Source: Candidatus Anstonellaceae archaeon | GTDB taxonomy: Archaea > Micrarchaeota > Micrarchaeia > Anstonellales > Anstonellaceae | NCBI GenBank assembly: GCA_038891055.1 | Contig: JAWAEU010000006.1 | Coordinates: 974-64,973, forward strand | Direction: 5' to 3' | Length of the DNA stretch: 64,000 nucleotides | Shown here: piece after piece, positions 21,345 through 39,106 of the stretch | Layout: every line of letters starts with the position of its first letter | How positions within the stretch are numbered: position 1 is the stretch's first letter | Notes under the pieces: generated by a model | Told to the model about the DNA's origin: nothing | The model's input: only the letters and a program-made list of their open reading frames with translations | The model's database searches: none | Program-made: the position numbers and the translations under genes

Positions 21345-24300
21345 TTATTTATTTTCCCAATAGCAATAATACAAAAATGGACTATAAGAAAGAGAGGGTG
21401 GATTAGAAGGACTACATGACATATCACTACTATAATTTTCTACTTTAACTTTACCACAGTTAGTGGTGTTTGCACCAAAGTGTGGGTAGACCACCTCCTC
21501 TGCATCATATGAAAGAATTGGGTGAGAAAAGAAAGTATAGTAATTTTCTGAGTCTTTTGTAGTTTGATTTAAGCAACATTTTTCATTTAGCATCCCTAGT
21601 ATAGTACCAAAGTCTGGGTTTGTAAATAATTCCTCCATGCTTTCTATTTCTAATTTTTTAACCTCTGTGAAATATTTTGATGAAGAAGGGATATAATAAC
21701 AAACTATCTTTTTAGAGCTAAATTTCTCTTCGCATAAATTATTTTTACAATAAGTAATAGAGATATAATTCCTTGGACATTCCTTTCCTGGGCAACTAGA
21801 ACCATCTTCGCAATCAGATTTACATAATGAAGGGTCAGATGAAGGACAATTTACACAAAGTTCAGATGCAGATTTGTTTTGAGCATTTACTAAAAGAGTT
21901 GAAACATCTGCAGAAAATTGTAAGTATGAAAGAGAGCCATTAACTAAATTTATAAATGGTTGATCCTTTAGTTCTGAAGTGCTATATACAATATTTTCTG
22001 GCTGTTCAAATAGAGAAGGTAATAGAATACCGATCACTCCGCTTAGTGTTAGTTTATCCTCTATTAAAAAGAGCATATCAAAAAATAAAGGATCCATATA
22101 TGAACTCTGCCTAAAGTATGTGTTTTTGTCGATTCTTAATTTCCACAAAGTTGGCTTTCCTAGATGTATTAGAATTTGTCTTGACAACTCAGCTGCTTTT
22201 TTGACAGTAGAGAGATAATAAGCTGATTTTTCTTTTTCACTAGAGAGGCGAGGAGAATAAGAAAGATCTAAATTTAAAACAATCACATCTACACTCTTTA
22301 ACTTAGCCTCCGAAGCTTGATCTAAGATAGGTGGAAAACCTATGTTTTCCTCTGTAGGGAATTTTATACCAAAGTAACTATAGAGGGAAGAATTTAGATT
22401 ATTTGGAGATGTAAAATAAATTTCTGAAATATTGGTGTCATTTTTTATTTTAATAATTTGCTCGTGTTCTAGTGCTAAAATACAACTTGGGCATAAATTC
22501 CTAGCATTGCTAATCCTAAAATATGCATTAGAAGAAGTAAGAGTATCTAGAATTGAGATCACTGCACTGTGTTTTGAATTTAAAAACAAAAATAAGAAAT
22601 CTGGAAGTGTTTTTACACTACACCTTGCGATCCACTTAACACATAAGCCTTCACTATTTGTTTCTTTACAATAATAGTTTAAATCACCTACACAATAAGG
22701 ATTATCTTCTGGCAGCTGATCTAATTCTCTTTCAAATACGACAGTATTGCCTCCCATTGAAATACCAGCTTTAGAATATTCTTTTAGATCTAAAACAACT
22801 ATTACATTGTTTTCTAAATAATTATGAATTTTAGAAATCAAATAGTTAAAATCTGGAATGGTTGAAGGAGAAGAATCAGGAAGATTTACAACAAAAGGAT
22901 TTGATGGAAGAAATGAATAAAGATTACTATTACATTTACAATTACCAAAATTAACAAAACAGTTAGAAGGACAGTACGAAATTGGAGTGCTATTTACTTT
23001 TTGATATGCTAGAGTTACAAAAGTACCACAACTATCACAAACTCCATAAGAGCGAGTTTTGAGAATATCCAAATTTTCTTCTTTTTTACACTTCCCCAAG
23101 TTTCTAATAACCCACATCTTGTCAAATAAAAATTCTCCTTTTTCTTCTTCCATATAATAGGGATGGAAAGAGAAAGGAGTAACATATTGCTCTATTAAAC
23201 TGTGGTTTTGTAGTGGTATTTTTTTAATAGAGATCTCTAAAATATCAAAGGTAGGATCATTAAAATTGTTAATATTATCTGTAGCTTTAAGGTCACATTT
23301 TTCAATAAAGTCAAATTTTTGTTTTAGATCACTAAAACTAACATTTCTAGAAGAAATTATTATTGTTTTTTCAGCGCCCTCGGTGGAAACTAATTGAAAA
23401 GGTGGCACTAAAACAAAGGCTCTTCTCCACTCCCACCTCATCTCGTCATTTCTATCATTTTGATTAGAAAGCCTGCTTAACTTAGAAGACAAAATTTCAA
23501 TATTGTCTTTCCACACAACCCAATCTTGTGGACCTAACATGCCATTTTTACAGCTTGGTTGTGCCGTATTATTGTTTTTATCTCTACAGATTTTATCTTT
23601 AGAATCAAAAAAGTAATTGTTTGGACAACTTGGTACAACTATTTTGTTAAAATTATTATCAATACACCCATATTCAGAAACTTTTTTTACAATATTTGCA
23701 AATTCTACCTGTTGTTTTTTTCCATCTATAGTCTTTTTATATTTATTAAACTCATCAAAATCATATACTCCCCAATCCCCATCCCAGCTACTCTCTCCCC
23801 TGACTGTTGCACTTGTATATCTCTTATCAAGTAAAAATAAATAATTTTTGCCATAATCATAATAAGCATAAAGATCATATGTTGTAGGATTATATTTACA
23901 CAATACTACTGGTTTTTTTTCAAAGTTTGAAAATAAGTTACAGAGATTTAGACCTGTTTTGCATTCTTCGTCCTCTATCGATCTATCAGATGGGCACTCT
24001 AAAAATGCGTCCTTACAAGAATTAAAAAAAGAACAATTACAGGAAATAGAACTATTATCATTCAAAAAGCAGCTTCCCCTAAGATATTGGCTCTTTATAC
24101 ATCTTGAAGAAAGACAATCGTTGTCTGAAAGACATTCAAATACCTTTGCACCTTCAGGACCAATTCCTTTTTCTCCAGTTTTTCTATAGTAATCCTTTGC
24201 TTCTTCAGGGTATTCTCTCATTAAAGCTGAGACATAAACAGAAGGATCTAAATAATAATGCTCTAGAGATTCTCCTCTTATATTTGTAGGGGGTAGAACA

Positions 24301-25319
24301 TTTATTTTTTTAAATTCAAGTTCTTTAAATAATTCCTTGTTAAAGATTTTAGAACAGAAATTAAAACATAGAATTTTTGAATAATCAGAACTTTTTGGAA
24401 AAGAAATAGATGGGTTGGACATGCAAAAGTAATGAGATTGATTTTCTGAACAAAAATTTAATGGTGCTTTAAAATTATTTTGAAAAACTTTTAGTTTTTT
24501 TAAGCCCCCTCCATAAAATTCAAGGTAATTAAAAAATCTATCCACAACTGCCTCTCCTCCAAAAGACCTAGTACAAAAAACATCTGAAGGTGGAAAATAA
24601 TATCTTGCTACTTCAAAATCTGAAAAAGAACCTAAAAATCCAATTCTTAAATTATTTACTAACCAATTCTTTTCTGTTAACAAACCCATAGTAGACTCAT
24701 TAATATATCTAAATTCACAAACTTTTCCAACTAAGCCTTTGTCTACTTCAAAAATAGAACTCTTAGTACCTCCAGAAGAAGACTTGTATGAATTTTCTAA
24801 TTTGTTAGTTTCATCAGGAGAAAATGAAAACTCCTTTTTTATTTTTTGCTTCTTTTCTCCACACATAAAAATTTTACAATCATTTTGTATACAATTAAAA
24901 CTTGAAACATTTACACAGATAGGATAGGTTATTCTTGGATTTGAAAGAGAATAACAAGTATTTTTTTCATCTTCATTAGTGCAATTTGCCTTATCAAAAT
25001 TACAATTTTTTGAGCAATCATTTGGTCTTATTGGATTTGAAGAGCCGGCGTATAAAATTTTATTTTTGTTTTTATCTAAAACTTCTCCGGAGGATTTGTT
25101 GAAATACTTACATTCTATACCATCAAAGTCCCCACACTCAATCATTTCAAATAAGTCAGAAGTGCCTTCAATCGGATTGGGAGAAAGAGAACAAGAATAT
25201 GTTTCATTAGACTGATAACAACATTGAGCTTCGATCAAATTTTTATTTGGGTTGATAGTACAACCTAAGAGAAACATTAGAACAAAAATTAAAAAAAGAG
25301 TAGAAAAGATTCTTATCAT
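21345..25319 (-). CDS. Large Cys-rich secreted lipoprotein-like protein (1324 aa)
   Basis: N-terminal hydrophobic stretch ending FLLGC; numerous cysteines; GAGGTG SD; last gene of the membrane-protein operon. Confidence 0.75.
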   Translation of the reverse strand: MIRIFSTLFLIFVLMFLLGCTINPNKNLIEAQCCYQSNETYSCSLSPNPIEGTSDLFEMIECGDFDGIECKYFNKSSGEVLDKNKNKILYAGSSNPIRPNDCSKNCNFDKANCTNEDEKNTCYSLSNPRITYPICVNVSSFNCIQNDCKIFMCGEKKQKIKKEFSFSPDETNKLENSYKSSSGGTKSSIFEVDKGLVGKVCEFRYINESTMGLLTEKNWLVNNLRIGFLGSFSDFEVARYYFPPSDVFCTRSFGGEAVVDRFFNYLEFYGGGLKKLKVFQNNFKAPLNFCSENQSHYFCMSNPSISFPKSSDYSKILCFNFCSKIFNKELFKELEFKKINVLPPTNIRGESLEHYYLDPSVYVSALMREYPEEAKDYYRKTGEKGIGPEGAKVFECLSDNDCLSSRCIKSQYLRGSCFLNDNSSISCNCSFFNSCKDAFLECPSDRSIEDEECKTGLNLCNLFSNFEKKPVVLCKYNPTTYDLYAYYDYGKNYLFLLDKRYTSATVRGESSWDGDWGVYDFDEFNKYKKTIDGKKQQVEFANIVKKVSEYGCIDNNFNKIVVPSCPNNYFFDSKDKICRDKNNNTAQPSCKNGMLGPQDWVVWKDNIEILSSKLSRLSNQNDRNDEMRWEWRRAFVLVPPFQLVSTEGAEKTIIISSRNVSFSDLKQKFDFIEKCDLKATDNINNFNDPTFDILEISIKKIPLQNHSLIEQYVTPFSFHPYYMEEEKGEFLFDKMWVIRNLGKCKKEENLDILKTRSYGVCDSCGTFVTLAYQKVNSTPISYCPSNCFVNFGNCKCNSNLYSFLPSNPFVVNLPDSSPSTIPDFNYLISKIHNYLENNVIVVLDLKEYSKAGISMGGNTVVFERELDQLPEDNPYCVGDLNYYCKETNSEGLCVKWIARCSVKTLPDFLFLFLNSKHSAVISILDTLTSSNAYFRISNARNLCPSCILALEHEQIIKIKNDTNISEIYFTSPNNLNSSLYSYFGIKFPTEENIGFPPILDQASEAKLKSVDVIVLNLDLSYSPRLSSEKEKSAYYLSTVKKAAELSRQILIHLGKPTLWKLRIDKNTYFRQSSYMDPLFFDMLFLIEDKLTLSGVIGILLPSLFEQPENIVYSTSELKDQPFINLVNGSLSYLQFSADVSTLLVNAQNKSASELCVNCPSSDPSLCKSDCEDGSSCPGKECPRNYISITYCKNNLCEEKFSSKKIVCYYIPSSSKYFTEVKKLEIESMEELFTNPDFGTILGMLNEKCCLNQTTKDSENYYTFFSHPILSYDAEEVVYPHFGANTTNCGKVKVENYSSDMSCSPSNPPSLSYSPFLYYCYWENK

Positions 25320-25333: not shown

Positions 25334-26473
25334 TCATAAATTTTTAGAAATAAAATGCAATAGATAAGTACTATCGGCTGATAGAAAATTTGCTAAGAAA
25401 TTTATAAATATTACAGTTATTGCTAGAGATAAAAAGGGGTAAAAAAAAGTTCCCATAGAAACTTGGACTATAAATTCTTCTATATCTGAAGAAAAAATAA
25501 TACTAGAATCATTTTCATTTGATTCAAAGGAAGAAAATTGTGCAAATGGCCCAAACTTTGCAAAGCAAATATTATTTATTACATCATTTTTAGTTGGAGG
25601 TTGGGGGGTTTGTACAACTTTAATTAATGAAGGTTGAATGAAAATATATGCTATTGGAAAAATAAAGTAAAAACCTATAGCTACAGCTATAAATAGACTA
25701 CCAATTCCTCTAAGGGGGGGAAATAGTCTTAGCAATAAACCTACTGGCAAAAAAAACGACAGGAGATTTTGCTCTAGATATGTTACAAAAAAGTATTGCG
25801 CTACTAAAGAGATAGAAAGAGAAGCCAACCTATTTGCAATATAATGATAACTCTCAATTTCTCTATAAACACCTTCCTCCCATATTTTACAAGATTGCCA
25901 ACCTACATAAGATTTACATTTCGAACCTTCTGTTTCTTTTACCATATTTGCGAGATATGCTGAGAGATAAAGTACATTAGATGCTTCTAAGTATTCTGAA
26001 ATTTTACATTTTATTAAAGTAAATGGTCCTGCCTGTTGATCCCATAATTTAATTTTTTGATCTTGACAAGAAAAAACAGCTGAGGAAGGCAAAAAAAGAT
26101 CCTGAATAAAAATAAAACCTGTGTTTAATAAATAAACAAAAGCTACTATTCCAAAAGCGGTTGCCGTTGTTTGATAGAATTCAGAAATTGCAAATCTTTT
26201 TACATTTTCTGCATCAAAAGCCTTTGCTAACATATAAATTATGACGTTTGCAAAAAAGCAAATGGCAACTACAATAGCTGAAAATTTTATCCAATAAAAT
26301 TCATCAGAATAATTAGATTGTTTGTACCAATTTACATTAAAGAGTTTAAAGTCTTTAGCTGAAGTAGTATTAGACTTCTGGAGCCACTCCCCCCAATCCT
26401 GAGAATATAAAATTCCTCCGAACAGAAGGAAGAATAAAGAGAATTTAAGCAAGATATGCAAGTTTTGAAACAT
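25334..26473 (-). CDS. Polytopic membrane protein, paralog 6 of the tandem family (VirB6/CedA-like candidate)
   Basis: Start moved to ATG 26473 after GGTGGTGAT; motifs YMLAKAF..ENVKRFAISE and LPVGLLLRLFPPLRGIG..FIA..IGFY..FP. Confidence 0.75.
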   Translation of the reverse strand: MFQNLHILLKFSLFFLLFGGILYSQDWGEWLQKSNTTSAKDFKLFNVNWYKQSNYSDEFYWIKFSAIVVAICFFANVIIYMLAKAFDAENVKRFAISEFYQTTATAFGIVAFVYLLNTGFIFIQDLFLPSSAVFSCQDQKIKLWDQQAGPFTLIKCKISEYLEASNVLYLSAYLANMVKETEGSKCKSYVGWQSCKIWEEGVYREIESYHYIANRLASLSISLVAQYFFVTYLEQNLLSFFLPVGLLLRLFPPLRGIGSLFIAVAIGFYFIFPIAYIFIQPSLIKVVQTPQPPTKNDVINNICFAKFGPFAQFSSFESNENDSSIIFSSDIEEFIVQVSMGTFFYPFLSLAITVIFINFLANFLSADSTYLLHFISKNL

Positions 26474-29400
26474 CAATATCACCACCTAAAATTGAAGCAA
26501 GATCTCTTACAAATGAAAGCACTGCTAGCAAAATTATCGAAGGTATAAAAAATGCTAAAATAAAGTTGATTGCAGAAAGACCAATATAAATATTTAAATT
26601 AGGGCTAAAACTTTCTTTTGACTTTGGAAATATTGGCTGCAGGGTTTTTTTATCTTCACCATACTTAAATATAGCATCACTATTTGGAAAAGTATCTTTT
26701 GTAAATGAGCCGACTTCTACAAGGTCAGCTAAATAGGAAAATTTATTAATGATGAAGGAATCGATTTTAATTCTGTTGATGGTAGAGGAATCTTTACAAA
26801 CATCATCAGAATTAAAAACTAGACAATGAATTGCTAACTTTGTGTGTATATTTTCTAATAACAAACCATATAATGCATAGCCAAATGGGAAGAGAATATA
26901 AAAGCCAATTCCAATTGCAATCATAGCTGCGCCTACATTTTTCAAAAAAGGCATGCACCTAAAAAATAAACCTACTGGTAATAAAAATATAATTAATCCA
27001 GAAGAAGAAGAGAGGAAAAATAATAAAAAGTAGTGCGTAAGAACATTGAACAAATAAAAGTTATTCAAATTAAGTAGAAAGTTAAAAACAGCCATATAAT
27101 TATAGGAAAAAGAATGAGGATTTTCATTTTGACCAAAAGTCATTTGAGCAGATTTTCTAATAATCTCTACTATTATGCTTTCTCCTGAATATGTATAGGC
27201 AGAGCCAGAAATATGGAAATAGGCAATATCTCTTCTGAGAATTATGATAGTTGAGTGGATTCTTTCTGATAGGTAATAGAGAGTATTTTGAGCAAACTCA
27301 GCTATTGAAGTGTCCATGTGCACTGTTTTTAGAGGTTCTAATCCAAAAAGATTTGAAATTGAAGAAATATTGACATATTTTTCACAATTTAAAACTAATA
27401 GTTGCCCAACTAAAACTAAAAATACCCCTAACAAAATTACTTCTGTAATTTCTCTTTTTGACCATTCCAACAATCTTGGATTAGAAAAAAGGTTTCCGAT
27501 CATAAATGCTATTGCAATAACAAAAACTATAGATGCAATACCAACTAAAAAGAATTTATAATACTGTGAAGTTATAACTTCTTTTTCAGAACAAAAAGAT
27601 TGAGGGGTTTGAGGAACAAAAACGTCTTTTGAATAAAGTTTAATGATTAAAAAGTCTGAAAAAGTGAATGTTTTGTGAGTTACAGAATCTAAAACCTTCC
27701 CTCTAACTTTTAATAGGCAACCCTTTTCTTTAAATTTAACAACTAACTTTAGATAGTCTTTGGTTTTTTCTACTAGCTTCCCTTCACATCCTCCTCCCGA
27801 AGTGATTGGAACTATATAAGAATCAAAATCGTAATCCCTTATATCCTGTGGAGTTAGAAAAACAAAATTTATATCGATATTTTTATTGTCATCTAAAAAT
27901 AAACGACTATTTTTCTCTAAATCTTTTTGTTTTTCACTATCTAATTGCTGCCCACCTACCAAAACTTTATCTATTGCCAAAATAGGACGCTCCAATGCAA
28001 ATTCAAAGGACTTATAAACACCTTTTTTGCTGTCTGTAAATGGATAAACTAAAACACTTAATTGTTTTATATCATAATAGGTATCTAAAAAAATATAATA
28101 AGGAAATCGATCAGGCACAATAAAATTAGTAAAATCAACTGTTTCTCCGTTAAATAAAGTTGCTCTTACTTCAATAACAGCTTTTGGTGAATTTTCTAAA
28201 TTTTTTATTTTGATAATTATATATTCATTCTCTTTTATTTTGGAATTTGGAACCATAAATGAAAGAGCACGGCCTTCCTTTTTGGAACTCTTATAAATAT
28301 CAGCACTAAACTTAATGGGACCAATACATGGACCATTATAAATTTTAATAGTTTTATTCTCAAAAATAACAGAAGAATCCAATGGCTCACTGCCTGCTTT
28401 TAGAGTAAAAATTAATTTATCTTTGTCCCCATTTGGACAAATTGAAGAAGTATTTAAAAGTAAAGACACATTAACAAAATTTGGAGAGAAATAGTCGCTA
28501 TTAGAAATTAGAGGATATTGAGGATTAGGAGTAAATAGCCCACTGGTACAATTCTCACTTGTACAGTTCCACTTATATAAAAAAGTAGTTTTTCTATCAT
28601 TAGAATCAATTACTTCTAATTCTCCCATCAAATAAAAGCCTGTTGAAAAATTTGTAGGCCTCATTGAACGTGGATTTGATGCGTTTGCCTCGAAAAATAT
28701 TCCCCTCTCCCTACTAATCCTAATATCATAAGAAAGATCGTAAATTCTTAATAATTGATATCCTCTCTGACAAGAGAAATTGTATGACAAATCCCCATTC
28801 GACCAATTTATTCTAAAAGGTGAATAGGATGCATTTAGCGTAACAGTTAAATTTAAGTCTAATCCAACTTTCTTATCAGTGTTTCTATCTGAGCTTCCAT
28901 TTCCCCTAAAGAGTAGCGAAAACAACTCTGGATCACAGCTAGAGTTATCAGATCGATATGTTGTATTACCATTTATAACAACTACTCCCCTACAATAAGA
29001 GCCATTGTTTATTTGTATTTCAAATGGTAAATTTATAATTTGAGTACTTAATTCGTCATCATCTCTCAAATTTATTTTAGTTCTACAAAAATTAATGTTA
29101 TTTTCTATAAGAGAGATGTTTGGTGGATAATGCTCAAATTTGTATTTTTTTACTACTAGAGGGAAGTATTGGCTTGCTGTGCCTTTAGTTATATTTAATC
29201 TATAGATCAAATAGATTTCATCAGAAATTGGAGAAATTATTTTGGTGAAATTATCATAAGGGTCAGATAAATAGGCAAAAGGAATTATTTTACGACTGTC
29301 GGCTTCCACAATTACATAGCACAAATTTTGCCTAAACCTCTGATTACAAAATACTAATTTAGAACGAGAATCTAAATTTGGAGATTCAGATAGAGAAATT

Positions 29401-29633
29401 TCTGAAAAATTAAAAATGCAAGGATCCTCTGGATTTGATGGGCAATCCAAAACTAAAAATCCATAATAAGAGGGGGAAATTTTATTGAAGCTCTCCACAC
29501 TTCCTTCAGCTAAATTATCTGGATCTGGAGGATTAGAAGAATTATAAAAGTAAACTAGAGGTGGAGTGAGAGGGGGAGGTACTTGCGCAACAAACACTCC
29601 CAAAAATAATATTAAAAAAAATAATTTTTTCAT
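26445..29633 (-). CDS. Polytopic membrane protein, paralog 5, with a ~690-aa N-terminal extracellular region
   Basis: Signal peptide; FMIGNLFSNPRLLEWSKRE; LPVGLFFRCMPFLKNVG..MIAIGIGFY..FP; LGGDID at the C-terminus. Confidence 0.75.
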   Translation of the reverse strand: MKKLFFLILFLGVFVAQVPPPLTPPLVYFYNSSNPPDPDNLAEGSVESFNKISPSYYGFLVLDCPSNPEDPCIFNFSEISLSESPNLDSRSKLVFCNQRFRQNLCYVIVEADSRKIIPFAYLSDPYDNFTKIISPISDEIYLIYRLNITKGTASQYFPLVVKKYKFEHYPPNISLIENNINFCRTKINLRDDDELSTQIINLPFEIQINNGSYCRGVVVINGNTTYRSDNSSCDPELFSLLFRGNGSSDRNTDKKVGLDLNLTVTLNASYSPFRINWSNGDLSYNFSCQRGYQLLRIYDLSYDIRISRERGIFFEANASNPRSMRPTNFSTGFYLMGELEVIDSNDRKTTFLYKWNCTSENCTSGLFTPNPQYPLISNSDYFSPNFVNVSLLLNTSSICPNGDKDKLIFTLKAGSEPLDSSVIFENKTIKIYNGPCIGPIKFSADIYKSSKKEGRALSFMVPNSKIKENEYIIIKIKNLENSPKAVIEVRATLFNGETVDFTNFIVPDRFPYYIFLDTYYDIKQLSVLVYPFTDSKKGVYKSFEFALERPILAIDKVLVGGQQLDSEKQKDLEKNSRLFLDDNKNIDINFVFLTPQDIRDYDFDSYIVPITSGGGCEGKLVEKTKDYLKLVVKFKEKGCLLKVRGKVLDSVTHKTFTFSDFLIIKLYSKDVFVPQTPQSFCSEKEVITSQYYKFFLVGIASIVFVIAIAFMIGNLFSNPRLLEWSKREITEVILLGVFLVLVGQLLVLNCEKYVNISSISNLFGLEPLKTVHMDTSIAEFAQNTLYYLSERIHSTIIILRRDIAYFHISGSAYTYSGESIIVEIIRKSAQMTFGQNENPHSFSYNYMAVFNFLLNLNNFYLFNVLTHYFLLFFLSSSSGLIIFLLPVGLFFRCMPFLKNVGAAMIAIGIGFYILFPFGYALYGLLLENIHTKLAIHCLVFNSDDVCKDSSTINRIKIDSFIINKFSYLADLVEVGSFTKDTFPNSDAIFKYGEDKKTLQPIFPKSKESFSPNLNIYIGLSAINFILAFFIPSIILLAVLSFVRDLASILGGDIDVSKLAYLA

Positions 29634-29634
29634 A

Positions 29635-30738
29635 TTAAGACAACCTTGATAAAATTGATAAATCTATTTCCAAACCTAAGCCATGGGCAATTGCTGAAGA
29701 GAAGGAAAGAGTGAGAGAAAGAGCTAAAAGTGGAATGAAGATGGATTTTAGAAGTACAAAGCTTAGAATTTTATCTGAATTGCTATTAAGATAATTTAAA
29801 ACAAAATTAGCAGTGTTTGGTATATCCAAGGAATTATAACTTTTTGGATCACATGAGACTGAATCTGGAATAGAATTTTCTAAGTCAGCATTCTGAAGAG
29901 TTATAGAATTTCCCTTTATTATTTTATGAAAATAAGAGCCATAATAGACATTATAATAATCCAGCAAAATTAAAAGAGAGGTGGGGAAAACAAAATAAAA
30001 TGAAATACAAAGAGAGACTAAAAATATACCAACCTTTCTGGTGAGATTAAAAAATGCTAAAAATAACCCTATTGGAAATAAGATACAGATTATTTGATTT
30101 GCAAAAATATTCAAGAAAAATTTAGTAAAGTAAATGCCAAAAGAAGCCGTAGAGATTGCAGTATAGAGCATATTTAGTGGTCCTCGAAGAGAAGAAAAAG
30201 TAGAACATACTCCAATACCAAAACCATTTCCATAGAAATTAAAGTAATAACTCTTAGAAGATTCAATTGCTATTGACTCTGCAAATTTATCTAACCTGTC
30301 ATTTAAAACTTTTAGGAGTTTATTATTTTCCTCTACTAATATAAATGCCTTTTGCTGTACAGTTATATTCTCCTGACTGACCTTTAGAGATTTGATATCA
30401 ATATAATTATAATTACTACTAAATCTGTTGCTCCATCCACTTGGATCTAAATTGAATGACTTAGCCAAATTTTTAGAAATAGGATTGAAAGACAATAGAA
30501 CAAAGACTAATATTAAAACCAAAATTGCCAAACTCTCGATTTCTTTTATTGCTAAGAACTTTAAATCTTGAAAATTAAACAAAGACCCTATAATCAAAAG
30601 AATTGCTATTATAGAAATTGCTATTGAGATTGAAACAAAGAGAGAGTTAAATAAACAGCTATTTTTAGGTGCATAATACTGAGCAAAAAGCAAATTTGAT
30701 AAAAATAAAAACAAAAATAAAAATCTGCTCGATCTCAT
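29635..30738 (-). CDS. Polytopic membrane protein, paralog 4
   Basis: IIGSLFNFQDLKFLAIKE; FPIGLFLAFFNLTRKVG...S..ISFY..FP; LGLEIDL at the C-terminus. Confidence 0.75.
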   Translation of the reverse strand: MRSSRFLFLFLFLSNLLFAQYYAPKNSCLFNSLFVSISIAISIIAILLIIGSLFNFQDLKFLAIKEIESLAILVLILVFVLLSFNPISKNLAKSFNLDPSGWSNRFSSNYNYIDIKSLKVSQENITVQQKAFILVEENNKLLKVLNDRLDKFAESIAIESSKSYYFNFYGNGFGIGVCSTFSSLRGPLNMLYTAISTASFGIYFTKFFLNIFANQIICILFPIGLFLAFFNLTRKVGIFLVSLCISFYFVFPTSLLILLDYYNVYYGSYFHKIIKGNSITLQNADLENSIPDSVSCDPKSYNSLDIPNTANFVLNYLNSNSDKILSFVLLKSIFIPLLALSLTLSFSSAIAHGLGLEIDLSILSRLS

Positions 30739-33700
30739 TTAAATCAACTTAAACAAGCCTGGGATTTCTATATCTCCACCTAAAAATATCGAAGTGCTTC
30801 TTATAAATGAGAGTAAAATCACAATAGAAAATGATGGTAGGATGATTGAAGGAATTAACAAAAGTCCAATTCTTATCCATCCAGTTTGAGTATAAAGCCC
30901 TTCTGCAGAAGTTGCAAAATTTAAAAGGTTTGACAGACTTACCCCCCCACTAGAACTACAGATATCACAATCTTGTCTAACATAAGGTAAATACTGGCAC
31001 TCTCTTTTACAATTTTCTATGCAGCCTTCGCAAGGATCTTTCTCAAAAGAGAAAATTCTACATTGCTTAGCATGAAAATCATCACATGAATAATCTACAT
31101 TCTCAATAAGTTCATTGAGGCTCTTTTCTTTTCCTTCCGGATCACAACCATAAGAAAGCTGGTTGTCTAAAAGTGAGGGGTCGATTCTACAGCGAATTGG
31201 GCAACCAATTGCTTTTTTAGATGGAATTGCACAGCTCTGACTAGAGGAAGATGGATTTACTTTTATAAAACATTTATCACAATTCAAACCACTTAAAATA
31301 AAATAGAGAGAACCCTTAGAAGGATCTAAACCAAATATTCTATAAACAACTGGACATAACTGGCAATTATCATCTGACTTTATAGTTTGTTTTGTTACCC
31401 CACCAACCTTTGTTGAAAAATCTACAGATGTGTCAACTACATTATGAAAAGCTAAGCCTGGCATTGCCCTTGCATTATAGGAGGCAAAACAGATTGGATT
31501 AATAGCACTAATCACAACTGACCTTCCACCATAATTAATTGAATAATTTCCACAAAAGACATAATTTGGATTTGCATTAGTATCGATAGTTCCACATTCT
31601 CTATAATCAGAATATCCAGAAGCTGCGATTAAATAATCCAACCCTGCATATTTTGAACCTGGGCTACAGTTGTAGGGCTGATAGCCAAGCTCTAAGCTAA
31701 AGTTTATATAAAGTCTTTGTCCTTGTTGAGTATAACTACAATAATCTTCCCACCAATGATTTTGTGCTACAGTTCCATCCGGTTTAGTATCCCCTCTTCT
31801 ATATGTTGTAGAATTATACACTACGATAGATTTATTACAAAGTGGGTTAGAATGACTCTTGTTCAGAGGAATGGAGTCAATTCTCACCCAATAATTCCCT
31901 CCTCTCAGTTGATTACAACTATAAGCCTCGTTTTGGCAATAAGATAAATCATTAGACCTTATTAAACCATTACAAAATGGGTCACAGTTATGAGAGGGAT
32001 TGGAGCTTTCAAATTTTAATGTGAAATTACCACATTCCACGAGATTGAGGTTTTTTAGCTCATCATACCTACAAGAGTAAGGACAAGCACTTCCATTAAT
32101 CATCGCTCTATCTTTAGAATTACTCTCGATATATTCGCCACACATCTCAAATCCTCTCTGAGAGGAAGAAGGAATACTTAAAATAGGATAGCAAGCAAAG
32201 TTTTCTAAATTTGCAGGATTAGAATTTAAGGCAGAAAGAGAAGGGAAATAAGAGCTATCCACTCCCTTTGGTAAATAGTAAGAGGAGGAATAATTTAAAA
32301 CCACCAATAGGGTGTAGTTATTATCATAAAATTGTTTAGTTCTTTGGTCAAAGTTACAGTTTGAAATACTAAAATCTATTCTTGAATATCTGTTAGAGAT
32401 ATCTAATAGAGTAGCAAATTTGGGCCAAGTTAAAATAAAACATTGGGCTCTACAAAATGGAGAAGAGCAAAATTTTTGCACATCTTTATCAAGAGTACAG
32501 TCAATGGATACAAATGGATTTGATTTTACTCTAACAGAATTTTGGTCATCATTCCAAGTATTTAAAAAAACAAATCTACTATCTCTTGCCAGAAAGTCTG
32601 GACAAAAAACTTCATCTTTTAGAGATTGATATGCTATTCTAACAGGGGAAATAGATGGGACTTTTGTGCCAGCGTATAAATTATAACCTTGGCAATTTTC
32701 ATAATAACCTTGGCTATTGTACGAAGTACATTCTATATACCTAGAAGGATCAAAATGACAATCATGTATAAGAAAAGATTTAGAATAAAAAGCTGCAAAT
32801 AGAGGATTGTTTGTATCAATAGCAATTTTGGCTATTGAGGAGGGATTTAAAAATCTACAAGAAGGTGGACAGCGAATACAATTTAATAAATTTTCATCAG
32901 TTATTTTTCCATTAGAAAATTTAGGGGGAGGAGAACAAATAGAATAGTCCATATAAACTGAGTTTAGAAATTTGCTAACATTTATCTTACAGCTGTTGGG
33001 GCATCGATTGCAAGCCTTTGAAAACATTCCCTCTTCACAATATTTCTCAAATATCGGGTCTTTATATTCTTTAGAATTTTCATCAAAATAAAGCCTGCAA
33101 TCCAATGGGCAGACATTTGAATTTCCACTATCTCTTAAATTTCTAATACTTAGAGGAAGACCACACAATTCAGTACAACTATCAGAAGCTTCTAGTGGAG
33201 AATAAAACATACAAATTGGCAAATCTGAGGAATCTCTATAGTTTAGGCAATCTTGGCAATTCTTACATTCTACTTTATTTTTAAATACCAATTCTATTTT
33301 TCCATCGTTTAATTTTGTATATACCCTGCAAACTGATGGACAATCTTTACATTTTTCTGCACATTCAAATCGATTAGTAGTTAAAGAATTAGAATTCTTG
33401 GGAACTTTTGTTGTAATTCCGATAGAGTTTTTATCGGCAGGAGAAAACGATTTAGAATAATCGATTTCTGGATAGCGATATTTACAGGAGATAGGACAAT
33501 CTCTACAATTAGAAGGATTGCTACAGTACATATCATTTGACTCATAATAAGAAGTATAGTTTTCTAAACCCATCGCTCTAATAAATTTGCAGGCATGAGG
33601 TAGATTGTTACATGCAGTTTCATTGCAAACCTTCAAATCAGTTGGCAAAAACCTGCAGCCCTCTGGGCAGTTTTTAGAATCAGCAACTTTTATTTTTCCT

Positions 33701-34785
33701 ATAACTTTTTGTTCGTCTTCGTCCTCTACAAAACAGGGCTGAATTCCTTGACTAAGTAAATACTCGTATAGATCTTTATCTTTATTTTTCTCATCCTCTG
33801 ACTTTTTTTCTATTAATTGTATTAAATCATAGTAAGAAATAAAGGATGAAGGCATATAAATTCCAGCAGGGTTAATAGAGGTATTATAAGCTATAGGCGG
33901 ATTTAAATCGCACTCTTTTGGACAAATTGATTCATTTTGATCTACTCCTTGGGAGCCAAAAATTGCACCTCTAAAAGTAAACCAAGAGATTAAATAAGTT
34001 AGAGGCCAAATTAGAAATAAACCAATTCCAATAGCTATTAACAAACCACCTAATCTTCTAGTGACAAATAAAGTTCTAAATAATACCCCTATAAAAATTA
34101 AGAATGGACCAAAAACAGGTGCTATAAAATTCAAAAATGCTTTTTGTGCTAAGAGTGAGATTAAAAAGGAAGATAAAAATTGCCCTTCTGTTGTTTTTAT
34201 TTCAACATCTAACCTTTTAAATGCTGCAGGTCTGCTACTTTCTTGATATCCAAGATCCCATATATTCATAGAAGAACCTCTGGAAAAAAATGTTTCTCGT
34301 CCTGCTTCTATAGATTCTTTCAAATTAACTTTTAGGGAGTTATCTGTTAATTTAATTAGAGTGTCCAGATAACAATTAGAATATTCCATATACCGAGGTA
34401 TATCTTTATTATAAATATAATTAGAGGGACAGGGGGAAACAAGAAAATTAGAAGAGTTGATTATAAGCTGATCTAAAAATAAGATTACGCCTAAAATAGT
34501 TGTGATTAAAATTGAAGTTACAAAAAGTTGCCCTATTTCAGTTTTTATTAAAACTTTTATCTCTGGGATATCAAAAAAAGAGGCTCCAAAATAACCTATT
34601 ACTAAAAGAGCTATAGATATAGATAAAAATAAAATTAAAAATACAAAAAAGTTTGATAAAATTAAAGAAATTGGGTTATAACTTTTTCCAAGATAACTTA
34701 CAAAATCTAAATAACTTTTTTCTAAATCATTCTGAGAAAAACAATATCCAATCAAAAATAAAAATAAAACTATTAGTTTTTTCAT
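30739..34785 (-). CDS. Polytopic membrane protein, paralog 3, with a ~1000-aa Cys-rich insertion
   Basis: ATG 34785 preferred (GTG 34797 is the alternative); IGVLFRTLFVTRRLGGLLIAIGIGLFLIWP; CPxxC(R/K) repeats; LGGDIE at the C-terminus. Confidence 0.75.
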   Translation of the reverse strand: MKKLIVLFLFLIGYCFSQNDLEKSYLDFVSYLGKSYNPISLILSNFFVFLILFLSISIALLVIGYFGASFFDIPEIKVLIKTEIGQLFVTSILITTILGVILFLDQLIINSSNFLVSPCPSNYIYNKDIPRYMEYSNCYLDTLIKLTDNSLKVNLKESIEAGRETFFSRGSSMNIWDLGYQESSRPAAFKRLDVEIKTTEGQFLSSFLISLLAQKAFLNFIAPVFGPFLIFIGVLFRTLFVTRRLGGLLIAIGIGLFLIWPLTYLISWFTFRGAIFGSQGVDQNESICPKECDLNPPIAYNTSINPAGIYMPSSFISYYDLIQLIEKKSEDEKNKDKDLYEYLLSQGIQPCFVEDEDEQKVIGKIKVADSKNCPEGCRFLPTDLKVCNETACNNLPHACKFIRAMGLENYTSYYESNDMYCSNPSNCRDCPISCKYRYPEIDYSKSFSPADKNSIGITTKVPKNSNSLTTNRFECAEKCKDCPSVCRVYTKLNDGKIELVFKNKVECKNCQDCLNYRDSSDLPICMFYSPLEASDSCTELCGLPLSIRNLRDSGNSNVCPLDCRLYFDENSKEYKDPIFEKYCEEGMFSKACNRCPNSCKINVSKFLNSVYMDYSICSPPPKFSNGKITDENLLNCIRCPPSCRFLNPSSIAKIAIDTNNPLFAAFYSKSFLIHDCHFDPSRYIECTSYNSQGYYENCQGYNLYAGTKVPSISPVRIAYQSLKDEVFCPDFLARDSRFVFLNTWNDDQNSVRVKSNPFVSIDCTLDKDVQKFCSSPFCRAQCFILTWPKFATLLDISNRYSRIDFSISNCNFDQRTKQFYDNNYTLLVVLNYSSSYYLPKGVDSSYFPSLSALNSNPANLENFACYPILSIPSSSQRGFEMCGEYIESNSKDRAMINGSACPYSCRYDELKNLNLVECGNFTLKFESSNPSHNCDPFCNGLIRSNDLSYCQNEAYSCNQLRGGNYWVRIDSIPLNKSHSNPLCNKSIVVYNSTTYRRGDTKPDGTVAQNHWWEDYCSYTQQGQRLYINFSLELGYQPYNCSPGSKYAGLDYLIAASGYSDYRECGTIDTNANPNYVFCGNYSINYGGRSVVISAINPICFASYNARAMPGLAFHNVVDTSVDFSTKVGGVTKQTIKSDDNCQLCPVVYRIFGLDPSKGSLYFILSGLNCDKCFIKVNPSSSSQSCAIPSKKAIGCPIRCRIDPSLLDNQLSYGCDPEGKEKSLNELIENVDYSCDDFHAKQCRIFSFEKDPCEGCIENCKRECQYLPYVRQDCDICSSSGGVSLSNLLNFATSAEGLYTQTGWIRIGLLLIPSIILPSFSIVILLSFIRSTSIFLGGDIEIPGLFKLI

Positions 34786-34789
34786 ATTT

Positions 34790-35749
34790 CTACCCACTAA
34801 AAAATCCTTTTAAACCTTTAAATACCCCTATTGTTGCAGTAATCACAAGAACTAAAACTAAATTTGGTATGAAGACAGCTAAAATTGTGAGAAATGCTAC
34901 AAAATTCAACGAATCATTTATTGTGCTATCTCCAAGATTTATTATATTGTTGAGTGCAGAAGGATCTGAAGTTTGGAAAGTTTTTTCAATAGAGACAAAG
35001 CAAAAAACATAAGTTAGTGGAATAAAAATATAGGATGAAATAGAAAAAGCTATTATAAAATCACCTGCATCTCTCAATAGAGGGAAAATCCTCAAAAAAA
35101 TTCCTGCAGGTAAAATAAAAGCACTTAGCATAACAAAAAGATTTTCTACAACAAATTTTTGTGCATAAATTGAAGCCAAAAGAGGGACTAAATAAGAATT
35201 TAGGATTTCCATATAGCTTGCCCACTCTCTTTTTCCTGCCAAAAAATATACTCCAAAATTTCCTGAAAATTGCGCAATAGAATCTGCATTTGCATACAAT
35301 TCCATAGAGCTAAATTGGTTATTAAAAGATTCTTTTAACAGATATATTGATTTTGAAGTAGTAAGAGAAATAATCTTATCAAAATAATTTAGAATATAAA
35401 ATATTGGATCTTGTTTAATTGGTAAAAAGAATGAAGCAGCAAGACAAGAAAAATTAATTGCTCCTATAATTGTTAGTATTAAAATAACTGTCCAAAATAG
35501 AGTTAATCCTTCTGTTTTAGACCACATTAACAAATAAGGATTGTGTAACATATTACCTAATAGATAAGAAATAACCACTAATGAGATTACTAAAGCTATT
35601 GCTGCTAAAATTTGAGAGTTTATATTAAATAGTTGATCTGTGGAGTATTTGAAACATGTTATTGGACCAACTAATAGATTATCACTAGATTGAATAGATT
35701 GACAAACTGATAGCCCAAACAAAATTAAAAATATAAAGTACTTTTTCAT
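34790..35749 (-). CDS. Polytopic membrane protein, paralog 2
   Basis: YLLGNMLHNPYLLMWSKTE; LPAGIFLRIFPLLRDAG.FIIA..I..Y.FIP. Confidence 0.75.
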   Translation of the reverse strand: MKKYFIFLILFGLSVCQSIQSSDNLLVGPITCFKYSTDQLFNINSQILAAIALVISLVVISYLLGNMLHNPYLLMWSKTEGLTLFWTVILILTIIGAINFSCLAASFFLPIKQDPIFYILNYFDKIISLTTSKSIYLLKESFNNQFSSMELYANADSIAQFSGNFGVYFLAGKREWASYMEILNSYLVPLLASIYAQKFVVENLFVMLSAFILPAGIFLRIFPLLRDAGDFIIAFSISSYIFIPLTYVFCFVSIEKTFQTSDPSALNNIINLGDSTINDSLNFVAFLTILAVFIPNLVLVLVITATIGVFKGLKGFFSG

Positions 35750-35751: not shown

Positions 35752-36984
35752 TTATAACAACCTCTGCAAGGCAAATAAATTTCCTTCTTGACCCAAAATT
35801 GCAGAAAATTGTTTACCTAAAACTATAGTAAATGTAAACTGCATTATAATACAACTAAAGCTTAAAAGAGCAACTAAAACCAAATTTGGCAATACAAATT
35901 TTACTAATGGAACATAAAAATCTTCCACAATTTGTTGTGGGGGAAATACCCCATATGACCTAATTCCATCTCCAATAATAGTTGGAATAATGGCCCTTAT
36001 TAAATTAATAACAGCTTGTATAAAACTTGCAATTGGTTTTCCTCTTATGATTGGGGAAAGAATATCCTGAGTCTTCGGCTCTGCCTCACCAGGAGGTATT
36101 GCGGGAAAGAGTAAATTGATAAGCTGTGCAATATCCTGGGCAGGAATAGCAGTATCCATAACATAGAAAGGGGAAAGAAGATAAGCCCAGGCTTCCAATG
36201 AAGAATAATCTGGAAGCTCGATATCTGGAAAATCTAACTTGTTTGAATAATCTACAAATTTTTTATCTTCTGCAAGCTTTATAGAATAGTCAAATAATGC
36301 TGAACTTAGATCTACAGAAAGAGGAAAAATGAAAATAAAAGAAAGAGTATAACCTAAAATAAATCCTCCTATTTTTTTTGTGAAAGGTATAAATCTTAAT
36401 AAAACACCTAAAGGCAAAAGAAAATTAAAACTCAAGAAAGCTAAAAATAAAACAATGTTAAAAGTACCTCTTATCAAAAGAATTAGAGAAAAACAAAAAT
36501 CTATTGCATACATTAATTGGCTTAATATTAGATTTGTACCATAAGAATAAGATTTTCCTTCAGTATAAGAATAAGCAAAAAAAGATAACCCAATAAGCTT
36601 ATTGGTAGATAACCCTGCTTGAAAATTATAATTAAAAGTACTAAATTTTGAAAAAAGAAAACTATTTTTTATTAAAATTGAGGATTGCTCTAATAAGTAG
36701 GATAAAATAGTTTTATTTGCTATTTTTGGGTAGGGAGGAGATCCAAAATTATAGGAATAAAATGAAAAGTCACCAAAACGACTTTCATTTACTTTAAAAA
36801 AGTTGAAGATAAAAATTATTACAATGCAGACCCCAAAGAAAAAAAATAGATCTGCTAATTCTTTTTTTACCCAAACTTTCAAAAAAGAAGAGGAAAAAAA
36901 ATTAGCAAATAAAAAAGCTATAGCTAAGATAAAAGTTGAAATAAGAGTACCGTAAATAATTGCAGAATATATATCAAAAAACAT
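35752..36984 (-). CDS. Polytopic membrane protein, paralog 1
   Basis: FLFANFFSSSFLKVWVKKE; LPLGVLLRFIPFTKKIGG..LG..L.F...FP; LGQEGNL at the C-terminus. Confidence 0.75.
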   Translation of the reverse strand: MFFDIYSAIIYGTLISTFILAIAFLFANFFSSSFLKVWVKKELADLFFFFGVCIVIIFIFNFFKVNESRFGDFSFYSYNFGSPPYPKIANKTILSYLLEQSSILIKNSFLFSKFSTFNYNFQAGLSTNKLIGLSFFAYSYTEGKSYSYGTNLILSQLMYAIDFCFSLILLIRGTFNIVLFLAFLSFNFLLPLGVLLRFIPFTKKIGGFILGYTLSFIFIFPLSVDLSSALFDYSIKLAEDKKFVDYSNKLDFPDIELPDYSSLEAWAYLLSPFYVMDTAIPAQDIAQLINLLFPAIPPGEAEPKTQDILSPIIRGKPIASFIQAVINLIRAIIPTIIGDGIRSYGVFPPQQIVEDFYVPLVKFVLPNLVLVALLSFSCIIMQFTFTIVLGKQFSAILGQEGNLFALQRLL

Positions 36985-36988
36985 AATA

Positions 36989-37564
36989 TCATGTTTGTGT
37001 TGTTTTGTTTATTTTTTTAAAATATACATCTACTAAATTTTCAAGTGCTTCATGGATGTTTAGAAGTTTTTTTTGTGGTAAAATATAGAGGCGATCAATT
37101 TCATATTGGTCTTCTATTTTTTTAATAAAATGCAACAAAACACTACCATTACTATTATAAAATGTGCTGGCTAGACTAAACAATACGCAAATATCATAAT
37201 AAATTAAAAACTGTAGCAATAACCTTGAAAATTCTTCTTCTGAATTTTTTATTTCAAGAAACAATTTTTCTATATTTTGAAAATCAGAATTTAGTGCGTA
37301 TTTTTTTATGTTTTTTAGATAATCTGGAAAAGATTGATCAAGATAAGAATATAAGTTAACAAAGATTTTTTTAAAAGATATTGTGGCATACTTTTTTAAA
37401 AAAGGTTTCCCCATAATAGAAACTAAAAAGTTACCTGAAGATAAAAATAAAAGCTTTTGTCTTTTTTGATTTTCTAACTCTAAATTTCTAATTGCATCTA
37501 ATAAATCTTTTTTTGACTTTTTTATAATCGAATTTTCCAACGAACTAAAATCCAAATCAAACAT
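36989..37564 (-). CDS. Hypothetical soluble helical protein in the membrane operon
   Basis: ATG 37564 (GTG 37579 is the alternative); no signal peptide; 4 bp from the next gene. Confidence 0.6.
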   Translation of the reverse strand: MFDLDFSSLENSIIKKSKKDLLDAIRNLELENQKRQKLLFLSSGNFLVSIMGKPFLKKYATISFKKIFVNLYSYLDQSFPDYLKNIKKYALNSDFQNIEKLFLEIKNSEEEFSRLLLQFLIYYDICVLFSLASTFYNSNGSVLLHFIKKIEDQYEIDRLYILPQKKLLNIHEALENLVDVYFKKINKTTQT

Positions 37565-37597
37565 ACTTCCTCGACCCACAATTACCTATTTAAAGAA

Positions 37598-39106
37598 TCA
37601 AAATGTCTTGTATTTATTTAAGGCATCCAAAGTTGCCTTATATAGAGAGTAATTAAATAATGGATCCTCGACTGCTCCGCTGCTTTGATTTACTAAATGA
37701 TTTATAAAATCATCCACACCTCTATTACCTGTTTTCAAGGCCGTCTCTCTTTTTGTAATTATGGTCAAAAGATCTTGTGTAAGACCTTTTCCTAATTGAA
37801 CAATAGTAGTTAATGCCCAAATTCCTAGTTCTTTTTTCCCTTCAGCTCCTTTATTTTGATTTAGGTTTTCAAGTTGTTTGTTTACTAAAGCTCCTATTTC
37901 TCTAACTGATTGATCTACTACTGAGTTAAGAATAGCGCCTCCCCCTACAGCAGCAGTATTTTTTAGATCTTTAACAAACTCTTTTGTAAAAAGGTTTTTA
38001 AAAAATGGGCCCTTTGTAAAAGGAGCCCTTGGAGTAAACTTTGACTTTCTTGGAGTAACCACAAAAGCAACCATATTAACCAGTCCTTTTATGCCTGCAA
38101 TTGTTCCAATATCTTTTGCTTTTTGTGTTATACTATTCTCTTCTTCGCCATCACTTTTTAATAATTTAAAACCACTAGAAATGGGATCCTTCAGCAAGCC
38201 CTGTGCTAAACCAATATATTTATTGACAGTAGGTGGTAATGATGAATTAGCAGTAGATTTTTTAGTATCCTCAAGAGGATTAGAATTAGAAGTATTAGAA
38301 TCTGATGTGGTTTGTTGATTTGATTGTGTGGCAGCTTCTTTAGAATCATTTTTTTTACCTCTCATAATATCTTTAGAATTCTTTATGTCCTCTGTAGCTT
38401 TGTCGGCTGAATCTACGACAGCCGTTGCAGTTTTTAAAACATTATTAATTTTACTTTCATTATCTTTTTGTTTTGACATGGGAGAATAATATAGCGTAGA
38501 AGAAAAATGCCTCGAGGGTAGATTTCTAGCAACTCCAAAATCAAAGAACATCAAAGGATTTCTACCCATAATAAAATTAGCTAAAAATATAATACCTGCA
38601 ATTATAGTGGAAAACCAACACAAATTAAAAGTTGCGTTTTGCTTTCTTGGTGTACAGAATTTTAACTGAGTAAATGACTTTGTATAGTTTTGAGAATAAT
38701 CTTGAGGTAAATTAGAGGGGAGAGAAGAGCGGCAGTAATTTTTTTGTAATGAAGGAGAGCTAGCGAGTGGTACAAATTCAGCCGAGAGAACATAACAAGT
38801 CTGAGCTGAAACATCAAGTTCAACTGCTGCTCTTCCTTCCTCATTAGTTACAACATAGCAAGAGAATCTTGAATCGTCAGATTCACTTTTTAGAGTTAGA
38901 AGAATAAAACCATGTTTTATTGGAATAGTTGGACCTACCAAAGAATCTCCTTTATTTTCTGCAAAAAGGTTTAAGTATACCTTTACCTTATCTCCATCCA
39001 ATTCATAATAAGATCTAATAAAAGAAGAATCGAGGGGGGGTTGGCATACTTGAGAAAAACTAAAATAAATAAAAAATAATAAAAATATCACCCCAACTTT
39101 TTGCAT
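37598..39106 (-). CDS. Signal peptide, extracellular domain, TM helix and cytoplasmic tail; first gene of the operon
   Basis: MQKVGVIFLLFFIYFSFS signal; four Cys in the ectodomain; TM WFSTIIAGIIFLANFIM followed by GRNPLMFFDF; S/T/N/K-rich tail. Confidence 0.7.
   Translation of the reverse strand: MQKVGVIFLLFFIYFSFSQVCQPPLDSSFIRSYYELDGDKVKVYLNLFAENKGDSLVGPTIPIKHGFILLTLKSESDDSRFSCYVVTNEEGRAAVELDVSAQTCYVLSAEFVPLASSPSLQKNYCRSSLPSNLPQDYSQNYTKSFTQLKFCTPRKQNATFNLCWFSTIIAGIIFLANFIMGRNPLMFFDFGVARNLPSRHFSSTLYYSPMSKQKDNESKINNVLKTATAVVDSADKATEDIKNSKDIMRGKKNDSKEAATQSNQQTTSDSNTSNSNPLEDTKKSTANSSLPPTVNKYIGLAQGLLKDPISSGFKLLKSDGEEENSITQKAKDIGTIAGIKGLVNMVAFVVTPRKSKFTPRAPFTKGPFFKNLFTKEFVKDLKNTAAVGGGAILNSVVDQSVREIGALVNKQLENLNQNKGAEGKKELGIWALTTIVQLGKGLTQDLLTIITKRETALKTGNRGVDDFINHLVNQSSGAVEDPLFNYSLYKATLDALNKYKTF

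Follow-up and report, generated by a model that had tools for sequence, protein, structure and literature searches.

A native nine-gene envelope operon of an Anstonellaceae archaeon, centred on a phylum-wide array of six membrane-protein paralogs

Introduction

The physical route by which DPANN archaea tap their hosts is a long-standing open question, and in cryo-electron tomography (cryo-ET) of a micrarchaeote both tubes and a docking barrel have been seen, with no component assigned (PMC11329633). The locus described here bears on that question. It lies within a 64,000-nucleotide (nt) stretch of contig JAWAEU010000006.1 (assembly GCA_038891055.1), called the window below, of a tiny symbiotic archaeon from a hot spring, belonging to the Anstonellaceae (Ca. 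Micrarchaeota, DPANN), a family now placed by NCBI in the phylum Microcaldota. Between positions 21345 and 39106 the window carries nine minus-strand open reading frames (ORFs), g1 to g9, of which g3 to g8 code for six related membrane proteins, p1 to p6. What such an operon builds, whether it belongs to the chromosome or to a mobile element, and what might drive it are the questions that the locus raises. The first-pass annotation of this DNA had seen in it a resident chromosomal machine rather than a conjugative element, either energised by an unlinked VirB4/HerA-type ATPase or working passively. The locus is in fact native, and its six-gene core recurs in the same order across the phylum. 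We give about an even chance to the reading that it encodes a native Micrarchaeota envelope machine with a hetero-oligomeric six-paralog core, acting as a conduit or docking complex at the contact with the host. The locus is a concrete, phylum-conserved candidate for host contact, combining an orphan six-subunit core, a motor linked to it in one order and giant surface domains.

The six-paralog family and its fixed array

The products of g3–g8 are true paralogs (blastp E values from 1e-9 to 1e-3), as had been claimed, and share a core of transmembrane (TM) segments TM1–TM4 with the common motif LPxGxxLRxFPxxRxxG...P. A word-indexed homolog search with g4 returned two relatives only; when a profile made from the six cores was searched exhaustively with HMMER, 2474 cluster representatives emerged at E<=1e-3, 1192 of them at E<=1e-10, and these about 2,500 representatives add a large orphan family to the protein universe. 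The operon proteins have their closest relatives among hypothetical proteins of Ca. Micrarchaeota and Anstonellaceae metagenome-assembled genomes (MAGs), and the named members of the family are hypothetical proteins from Micrarchaeota, Anstonellales and 'Parvarchaeota' MAGs.

One genome from each GTDB species was scanned with a pattern from a 7-sequence subset (an alignment of 18 sequences proved too diverse to yield one), and 76 loci were recovered, labelled mostly Micrarchaeota, Micrarchaeia, Anstonellales or plain archaeon, and in two cases 'ainarchaeum'. Family members nearly always stand together as a single tandem array in one direction, with exactly six of them in 55 gene-called arrays, and most arrays with another number of members are cut by a contig end or split by gene calling. 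The best match of a paralog in another locus occupies the same array position in about 57–89% of comparisons. The array of the window contains the six paralogs in the canonical order p1–p6, with the motif and with the position-specific tails. Beyond the three closest genomes conservation is confined to g3–g8, to which a large subset of loci adds g9 and the N-terminal portion of g1.

The C-terminal tail motif is present in p1, p3, p4, p5 and p6 across all locus types, while p2 always lacks it and ends in a short basic tail. By ORF and paralog comparison, p1 (g3, 35752..36984) is the first of the 5-TM paralogs; it has no signal peptide and ends in ...LGQEGNLFALQRLL (family pattern ...GQEG/GGExxLxGLx[KR]L.). 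The smallest paralog, p2 (g4, 34790..35749; 319 amino acids, aa), has a basic tail of its own, ...KGLKGFFSG. In p3 (g5, 30739..34797) the TM scan places a Cys-rich extracellular insert of ~1000 aa between TM4 and TM5, and the tail is ...LGGDIEIPGLFKLI, conforming to F[IV]RxLSPxLGGD[IV][ED]IPGLx[KR][IL]I. The 367-aa p4 (g6, 29635..30738) ends in ...GLGLEIDLSILSRLS (...G[LS]EIDLxxLxRL.), and p5 (g7, 26445..29633), in which a signal peptide is followed by an N-terminal ectodomain of ~670 aa, ends in ...LGGDIDVSKLAYLA (...GEEVDxSxL...). The last member, p6 (g8, 25334..26485; 383 aa, family tail ...GGDxGxxxxxxxK...), is called from a GTG codon and overlaps p5 by 41 nt, and its true start may lie further downstream than this GTG.

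Order, orthology and position-specific tails together indicate that the six genes diverged before the radiation of the phylum and have been kept together since, a rare case of six paralogs held in fixed order from before phylum diversification. Such retention is the pattern expected for obligate subunits of one complex. Several Micrarchaeota genomes carry two complete arrays each (the locus pairs L006/L052, L003/L047, L043/L050, L019/L063, L049/L059 and L036/L065), with a g9-like giant gene downstream of one array and different neighbours at the other; the whole machine has therefore been duplicated in some lineages.

Topology and fold of the subunits

Five of the six paralogs open with an ordinary signal peptide, p1 being the exception. 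The signal peptides, the outside placement of the inserts and the enrichment of glycosylation sequons argue for a 5-TM topology with the N-terminus outside and the C-terminus inside, in which the TM3–TM4 loop (R..R..G) and the C-terminal tail would be cytoplasmic. Across 161 family members cytoplasmic loop 2 has the highest information content (2.82), followed by TM4 (2.29) and cytoplasmic loop 1 (2.04), and the extracellular domain the lowest (1.01). The near-invariant residues are, in g4 numbering, E80, R220, R226, G229 and P244.

An AlphaFold2 model of g4, built with 40 relatives, is confident and all-helical (predicted local distance difference test, pLDDT, 87; predicted template modelling score, pTM, 0.79), and its helices reach 47 residues and must therefore extend past the bilayer. 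A Foldseek search of the whole PDB with this model gave nothing better than an E value of 0.17, with TM-scores below 0.3; a profile of the paralog core had zero matches among the PDB sequences, and Pfam scans of 40 and then 34 family members revealed no recurrent family. A hint of T4SS_pilin (PF18895) in 2 of the 40 members (best E 0.005) was followed by 0 of 34, and was dropped.

A motor ATPase linked to the array in Micrarchaeales

The operon was said to lack an ATPase, and the Walker A pattern [AG]x4GK[ST] is indeed absent from all nine proteins. Twelve of the 76 loci, of a Micrarchaeales type, present a different picture, the array being followed there by four co-directional genes coding for two paralogous proteins of ~275 aa with two to three TM segments, an ATPase of ~500 aa and a short protein (~100 aa) paralogous to the ATPase C-terminus. 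In Pfam the ATPase matches the families DUF87/HerA-central (1e-14), AAA_10 (1e-11) and TraG P-loop (4e-9), and closest to it in the PDB stand proteins of the HerA family and 4ag5, the ATPase domain of VirB4, aligned over residues 68–338. Conservation of the ATPase is high: apart from the query itself (100%), its 120 best matches are 64–84% identical to it; many of them are labelled Micrarchaeales or Micrarchaeaceae, and some orthologs bear the Joint Genome Institute (JGI) name 'VirB4 component'. When the linkage was looked up from the side of the ATPase, the array lay upstream in 3 of 3 cases, in the same layout of 14–15 genes.

No NurA, Mre11 or Rad50 gene is found near the array-linked ATPase, whose neighbours code for uncharacterised membrane or coiled-coil proteins, and the ATPase is for this reason not taken for part of a HerA–NurA repair module. 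Past the ATPase in two Micrarchaeales loci (L081, 11820-15463; L083, 11824-15685) lie genes for a ~120-aa protein with CxxC pairs and a TM segment, a ~245-aa coiled-coil protein and a ~780–820-aa protein with one N-terminal TM segment. Upstream, both loci share a conserved gene for a ~245-aa protein with 6–8 TM segments, and none of these additional proteins has a significant Pfam match. The Pfam-scanned P-loop neighbours of the non-Micrarchaeales arrays are housekeeping proteins, namely FtsY, aminoacyl-tRNA synthetases, Cdc48, a small AAA_18-type NTPase, EF1A and ATPase_2/DUF234 proteins, none of which is a candidate motor.

A resident chromosomal locus

The view that the operon is a resident chromosomal machine and not a conjugative element is supported by its composition, its synteny, the lack of att repeats and the lack of relatives on viral contigs. 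No integrase, transposase or relaxase family was matched among the Pfam-scanned flanking ORFs (most ORFs of at least 110 aa), in agreement with the earlier statement that no mobility gene lies nearby; these ORFs are housekeeping genes or have no family match. The composition of the operon is native: its relative synonymous codon usage correlates with that of the flanks at r 0.986, against a baseline of 0.986 +/- 0.005 obtained with random sets of flank genes, the G+C content is 0.303 vs 0.304 in the flanks, that of third codon positions 0.202 vs 0.208, and the tetranucleotide profiles are unremarkable. No att-like repeat was found, including a repeat of the end of the adjacent tRNA-His gene (39215..39322), which is not an integration scar. 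Viral contigs carry no relatives.

In the closest related locus (L001, a MAG, 71% identity) all nine genes stand in the same order between the same flanks, with tRNA-His beside g1, and in the next (L002, a MAG, 51% identity) the order is the same from g2 onward, g1 being lost to the contig start. Across the 76 loci the six-gene core is embedded in differing housekeeping contexts. These observations support a locus that is native and vertically inherited.

Surface and accessory proteins

None of the nine proteins gives a match above noise in Pfam or NCBIfam, and g9, g5, g7 and g1 have no Pfam match even at E<=1. This includes S_layer_N (PF05123), the N-terminal S-layer domain that marks the Micrarchaeota S-layer protein (bioRxiv 10.1101/2021.04.28.441871) and is absent from all nine proteins of the operon. 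The signal peptides of the operon are ordinary and not of the K/R-G-hydrophobic prepilin kind, and there is no T2SSE or T2SSF match that would indicate an archaeal type IV pilus or archaellum.

The extracellular insert of p3 contains 5.5% Cys and is built from repeated CxxCPxxC[RK] modules, with 8 copies of CPxxC[RK]. Its AlphaFold2 model is confident (pLDDT 82, pTM 0.65) and had no significant Foldseek match in the PDB or BFVD. A heme or Fe-S reading of the repeats was set aside, there being no CxxCH motif; with the CPxxC[RK] copies situated outside the cell in a domain rich in sequons, the repeats more probably form disulfide knots. The large outer domains carry 1.5–3.0 N-x-S/T sequons per 100 aa (3.0 in the p5 ectodomain, 1.5 in g9) vs 0.2–0.5 in the cytosolic proteins of the window.

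The last gene, g9 (21345..25319), codes for a secreted protein of 1324 aa with 4.8% Cys and a lipobox-like N-terminus, ...FLLGC; in about 35 other loci a g9 homolog comes immediately after the array. Relative to the lipobox [LVI][ASTVI][GAS]C the Leu at -2 is non-canonical, the family consensus is ..AGC, and the N-terminal Cys20 is kept in more than 70% of the homologs. Lipoproteins are predicted to be widespread in DPANN archaea (bioRxiv 10.1101/2024.08.27.609747), and g9 is probably a lipid-anchored surface component.

At the other end, g1 (37598..39106) codes, by its translation and a TM scan, for a 502-aa membrane protein comprising a signal peptide, an ectodomain of ~140 aa, a TM segment at ~158–176 and a low-complexity C-terminal region. 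Its first ~290 aa match the N-termini of 900–2341-aa two-TM proteins encoded beside arrays, often divergently; this g1-type family occurs in 22 loci including the window, and its members have no Pfam domains. The product of g2 (36989..37579) has 196 aa, no signal peptide and a single weakly hydrophobic stretch, and it may be a cytoplasmic accessory protein. Homologs of g2 occur only in the two closest loci (three genomes with that of the window), and the gene is lineage-specific.

The proposed envelope machine and its rivals

In the reading proposed here, p1–p6, one copy each, would form a hetero-oligomeric, probably pseudo-hexameric (1:1:1:1:1:1) ring in the cytoplasmic membrane, each subunit with its N-terminus outside, its C-terminus inside and a helical extracellular stalk. 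The cytoplasmic face would consist of the E of loop 1, the RxxxxxRxxG of loop 2 and the amphipathic tail xGG[DE]xxIxGLx[KR]LI, found in all subunits but one. This face and its tails would dock a hexameric ATPase of the FtsK/HerA/VirB4 class, encoded in the same operon in Micrarchaeales and presumably unlinked or lost in the present Anstonellaceae genome. The lineage-variable outer face would form a disulfide-rich, glycosylated structure across the pseudo-periplasm, made here of the p3 insert, the p5 N-domain, the putative lipoprotein g9 and the g1 ectodomain; in Ca. Micrarchaeum harzensis the pseudo-periplasm measures 20–25 nm (bioRxiv 10.1101/2021.04.28.441871). Most probably such a machine would act as a trans-envelope conduit or docking port at host contact, through which macromolecules or lipids are taken up or exchanged; that it serves to conjugate a mobile element is unlikely. 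As cultured Micrarchaeota live as obligate episymbionts, a role at this contact is plausible, and a speculative link to it is the 21-nm barrel that cryo-ET has shown in the envelope of the ARM-1 micrarchaeote, where it docks the host nanotube (PMC11329633).

Several observations weigh against this reading. No Walker A motif occurs in any ORF of at least 100 aa in the window, and a hidden Markov model of the Micrarchaeales ATPase found nothing in the window or in the 10 kb past its right edge, as read on an 881,330-bp contig of GCA_038874715.1 that matches the window sequence. The suggestion of an unlinked VirB4/HerA-type ATPase gains real comparative support from Micrarchaeales. A linked ATPase is absent from 64 of the 76 arrays, and the C-terminal tail is conserved with or without it, so that the tail is not by itself proof of docking. 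The monomer model has no fold relative, so nothing links the paralogs structurally to any channel. The DNA of the window is present in hot-spring metagenomes, and the same study's only metatranscriptome had zero contigs on the locus. A purely structural role is moreover compatible with most of the same facts. In a passive complex of this kind the paralogs would serve as anchors or spacers of the S-layer or the pseudo-periplasm and, with the giant Cys-rich surface proteins, would make up an organelle for adhesion or scaffolding that needs no energy and transports nothing. This would suit the arrays devoid of a linked motor, the window devoid of P-loop genes, and the huge, disulfide-rich, glycosylatable ectodomains. 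For the S-layer protein of Micrarchaeota, which lacks a clear anchor in the membrane, a stalk formed by another protein has been proposed (bioRxiv 10.1101/2021.04.28.441871), and the S-layer of the ARM-1 micrarchaeote is six-fold symmetric (PMC11329633). However, conservation peaks on the cytoplasmic and not the extracellular surface, a whole order keeps the array and a HerA/VirB4-class ATPase in one tight co-directional run, and g9 and the other proteins lack S_layer_N; we consider a passive complex somewhat unlikely.

The array, universal in a phylum of host-dependent cells, might otherwise form a small-molecule or lipid importer or flippase, a multi-subunit permease for host lipids, nucleotides or amino acids whose surface proteins bind the substrate or the host. 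Cultured Micrarchaeota are host-dependent, with reduced genomes devoid of genes for key metabolic processes (PMC11329633), and a putative complex would comprise about 30 TM helices, in which one E and two R, charged and strictly conserved, sit where the membrane meets the cytoplasm. This explanation is nevertheless quite improbable: the paralogs show no likeness to transporter families in Pfam, NCBIfam or the PDB, the linked ATPase is of the FtsK/HerA/VirB4 class, whose typical cargo is DNA or proteins, and not of the ABC or P-type, and giant ectodomains are atypical of permeases. Least credible, and largely refuted with all tests against it, is an origin from a conjugative or integrated element, as its remnant or its cargo, or from a DNA transfer system of the Ced/Ted kind, inserted at tRNA-His, a notion that has the adjoining tRNA gene in its favour, as well as the AAA_10 and TraG P-loop signatures of the related ATPase and the 'VirB4 component' names. 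Against it stand the lack of an integrase, relaxase, coupling protein or att repeat, a composition identical to that of the flanks, the empty viral contigs, the presence of the array in every recovered species, in varied housekeeping contexts and with a fixed internal order, and the paralogs themselves, which have neither a TrbL/VirB6 match in Pfam nor a Foldseek match in the whole PDB, the T4SS_pilin hint having failed to recur.

The proposed envelope machine can be carried one speculative step further. Cryo-ET of ARM-1 revealed in the symbiont envelope a 21-nm barrel of unassigned identity that docks a host nanotube (PMC11329633). It is conceivable, though in our estimate unlikely, that the array is the membrane core of a Microcaldota-specific trans-envelope system, a pseudo-hexameric port driven by a HerA/VirB4-class hexamer and identical with the ARM-1 barrel. 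If this were true, the array would be the device by which these symbionts receive host cytoplasmic material.

Comparison with known systems

The Ced DNA-import system is chromosomal and not bound to a mobile element. The Micrarchaeales run resembles it in both respects, and like Ced/Ted and minimal type IV secretion systems it joins polytopic membrane proteins and two two-TM proteins with an FtsK/HerA/VirB4 ATPase. It differs from them in having six fixed paralogs instead of one, without likeness in sequence or fold to VirB6, TrbL or CedA, in its giant Cys-rich ectodomains and in the lack of an identified pilin, and the operon of the window has no ATPase besides. Only orthologous loci of another order encode a VirB4/CedB-class ATPase. 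No VirB6/TrbL/CedA-like channel was detected among the six paralogs of the window and 73 further members (Pfam and NCBIfam, together with the PDB profile and Foldseek searches), and the operon of the window contains no VirB2/CedA1-type pilin and no small two-TM gene.

Type VII secretion (EccC/EssC, EccD/EssB) offers a functional analogy only, with a hexameric motor of the FtsK/HerA superfamily beneath a polytopic ring, carrying macromolecules over a single membrane. No homology was detected, the array ATPase is separate and soluble, and the number of paralogs and their ectodomains have no counterpart there. The flagellar/T3SS export gate FliPQR is likewise an analogy, a pseudo-hexamer of related helical-hairpin subunits protruding from the membrane, as the long hairpins of the paralog model reach past the bilayer; it shows no Foldseek similarity, and subunit number, order, topology and partners differ. 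The giant SPEARE proteins on the surface of nanohaloarchaea include a VirB4/TraG-like ATPase domain and have been proposed to provide a channel towards the host (PMC10266531). The array shares with them a DPANN lineage and the coupling of giant extracellular adhesin-like proteins to a VirB4-class ATPase; however, in SPEARE an Ig-like ectodomain, a TM segment and the ATPase are fused, whereas the array is multi-gene with non-Ig, Cys-rich ectodomains, and no sequence relationship was found. With S-layers of the SlaA/SlaB type, consisting of a lattice and a stalk, the locus has in common large glycosylated secreted proteins and membrane-anchored partners, and the ARM-1 lattice is six-fold; unlike them, its nine proteins have no S_layer_N, and the part of the single-pass SlaB would be played by six paralogs of five TM segments each, conserved on their cytoplasmic face.

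No description of the six-paralog array was found in the literature searched. Since the membrane components have no detectable relative in curated families or solved structures, we rate the system as new in kind, with only the ATPase of the sister loci belonging to a known superfamily and with a function that is predicted.

Organization of the locus and its surroundings

The nine ORFs occupy exactly the coordinates given in the first-pass annotation, and their spacing from g1 to g9 is 18, 4, 2, -8, 0, 1, -41 and 14 nt, which bears out the tightly packed co-directional run. It also lies, as described, between core genes, with UPF0147 and the DNA polymerase D (PolD) genes on one flank and an intron-containing tRNA-His gene on the other. 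The run goes on past g9: the same strand continues, after a gap of 74 nt, with UPF0147 (21022..21270; PF03685, E 1e-23), which marks the downstream boundary, and then with PolD DP1, DP2 and a HAD hydrolase. These housekeeping genes leave the 3' end of the transcription unit undefined, and genes of the replication polymerase (15044-21270, minus strand) thus lie directly downstream of an envelope operon. Within the 74-nt gap, T-runs and a TATA-like element suggest that the UPF0147 side may have a promoter of its own. At the other end, the TATA-box-like TTTAAAAATA (39126..39135, minus strand) can be read in the sequence ~24 nt ahead of the g1 start codon (ATG) and may be the promoter for a transcript with a short leader or none.

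The upstream boundary is the tRNA-His gene (39215..39322, plus strand; anticodon GTG), 108 nt long with an intron of ~37 nt, which was seen by Rfam only (51.7 bits), ARAGORN reporting zero tRNAs over the whole window. Pfam identifies beyond it aminotransferase V, NMD3, DUF2070, DHH, prefoldin, exosome subunits, SBDS and the proteasome alpha subunit. The depth of DNA reads across the locus is flat in two metagenomes.

Elsewhere in the window, five tandem minus-strand ORFs at 51209-55346 (212, 164, 185, 615 and 202 aa) have no Pfam match, and the N-terminus of each is a signal of the archaeal class III (type IV prepilin-like) kind, for example MKRGQITAEIVAYVGLF; neither a PilB/FlaI ATPase nor PilC accompanies this pilin-like cluster anywhere in the 64 kb. 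A NurA-domain gene (8421-9446, minus strand), 12 kb from the operon, has no HerA gene beside it. The adjoining 440-aa ORF (7086-8408, plus strand) has neither a Pfam match nor a Walker A motif, and the usual archaeal HerA–NurA pairing is therefore broken in the window. A further secreted Cys-rich protein is encoded outside the operon at 4969-6087 (minus strand; 372 aa), with three DUF5885 stretches and a weak Dickkopf_N-like Cys pattern.

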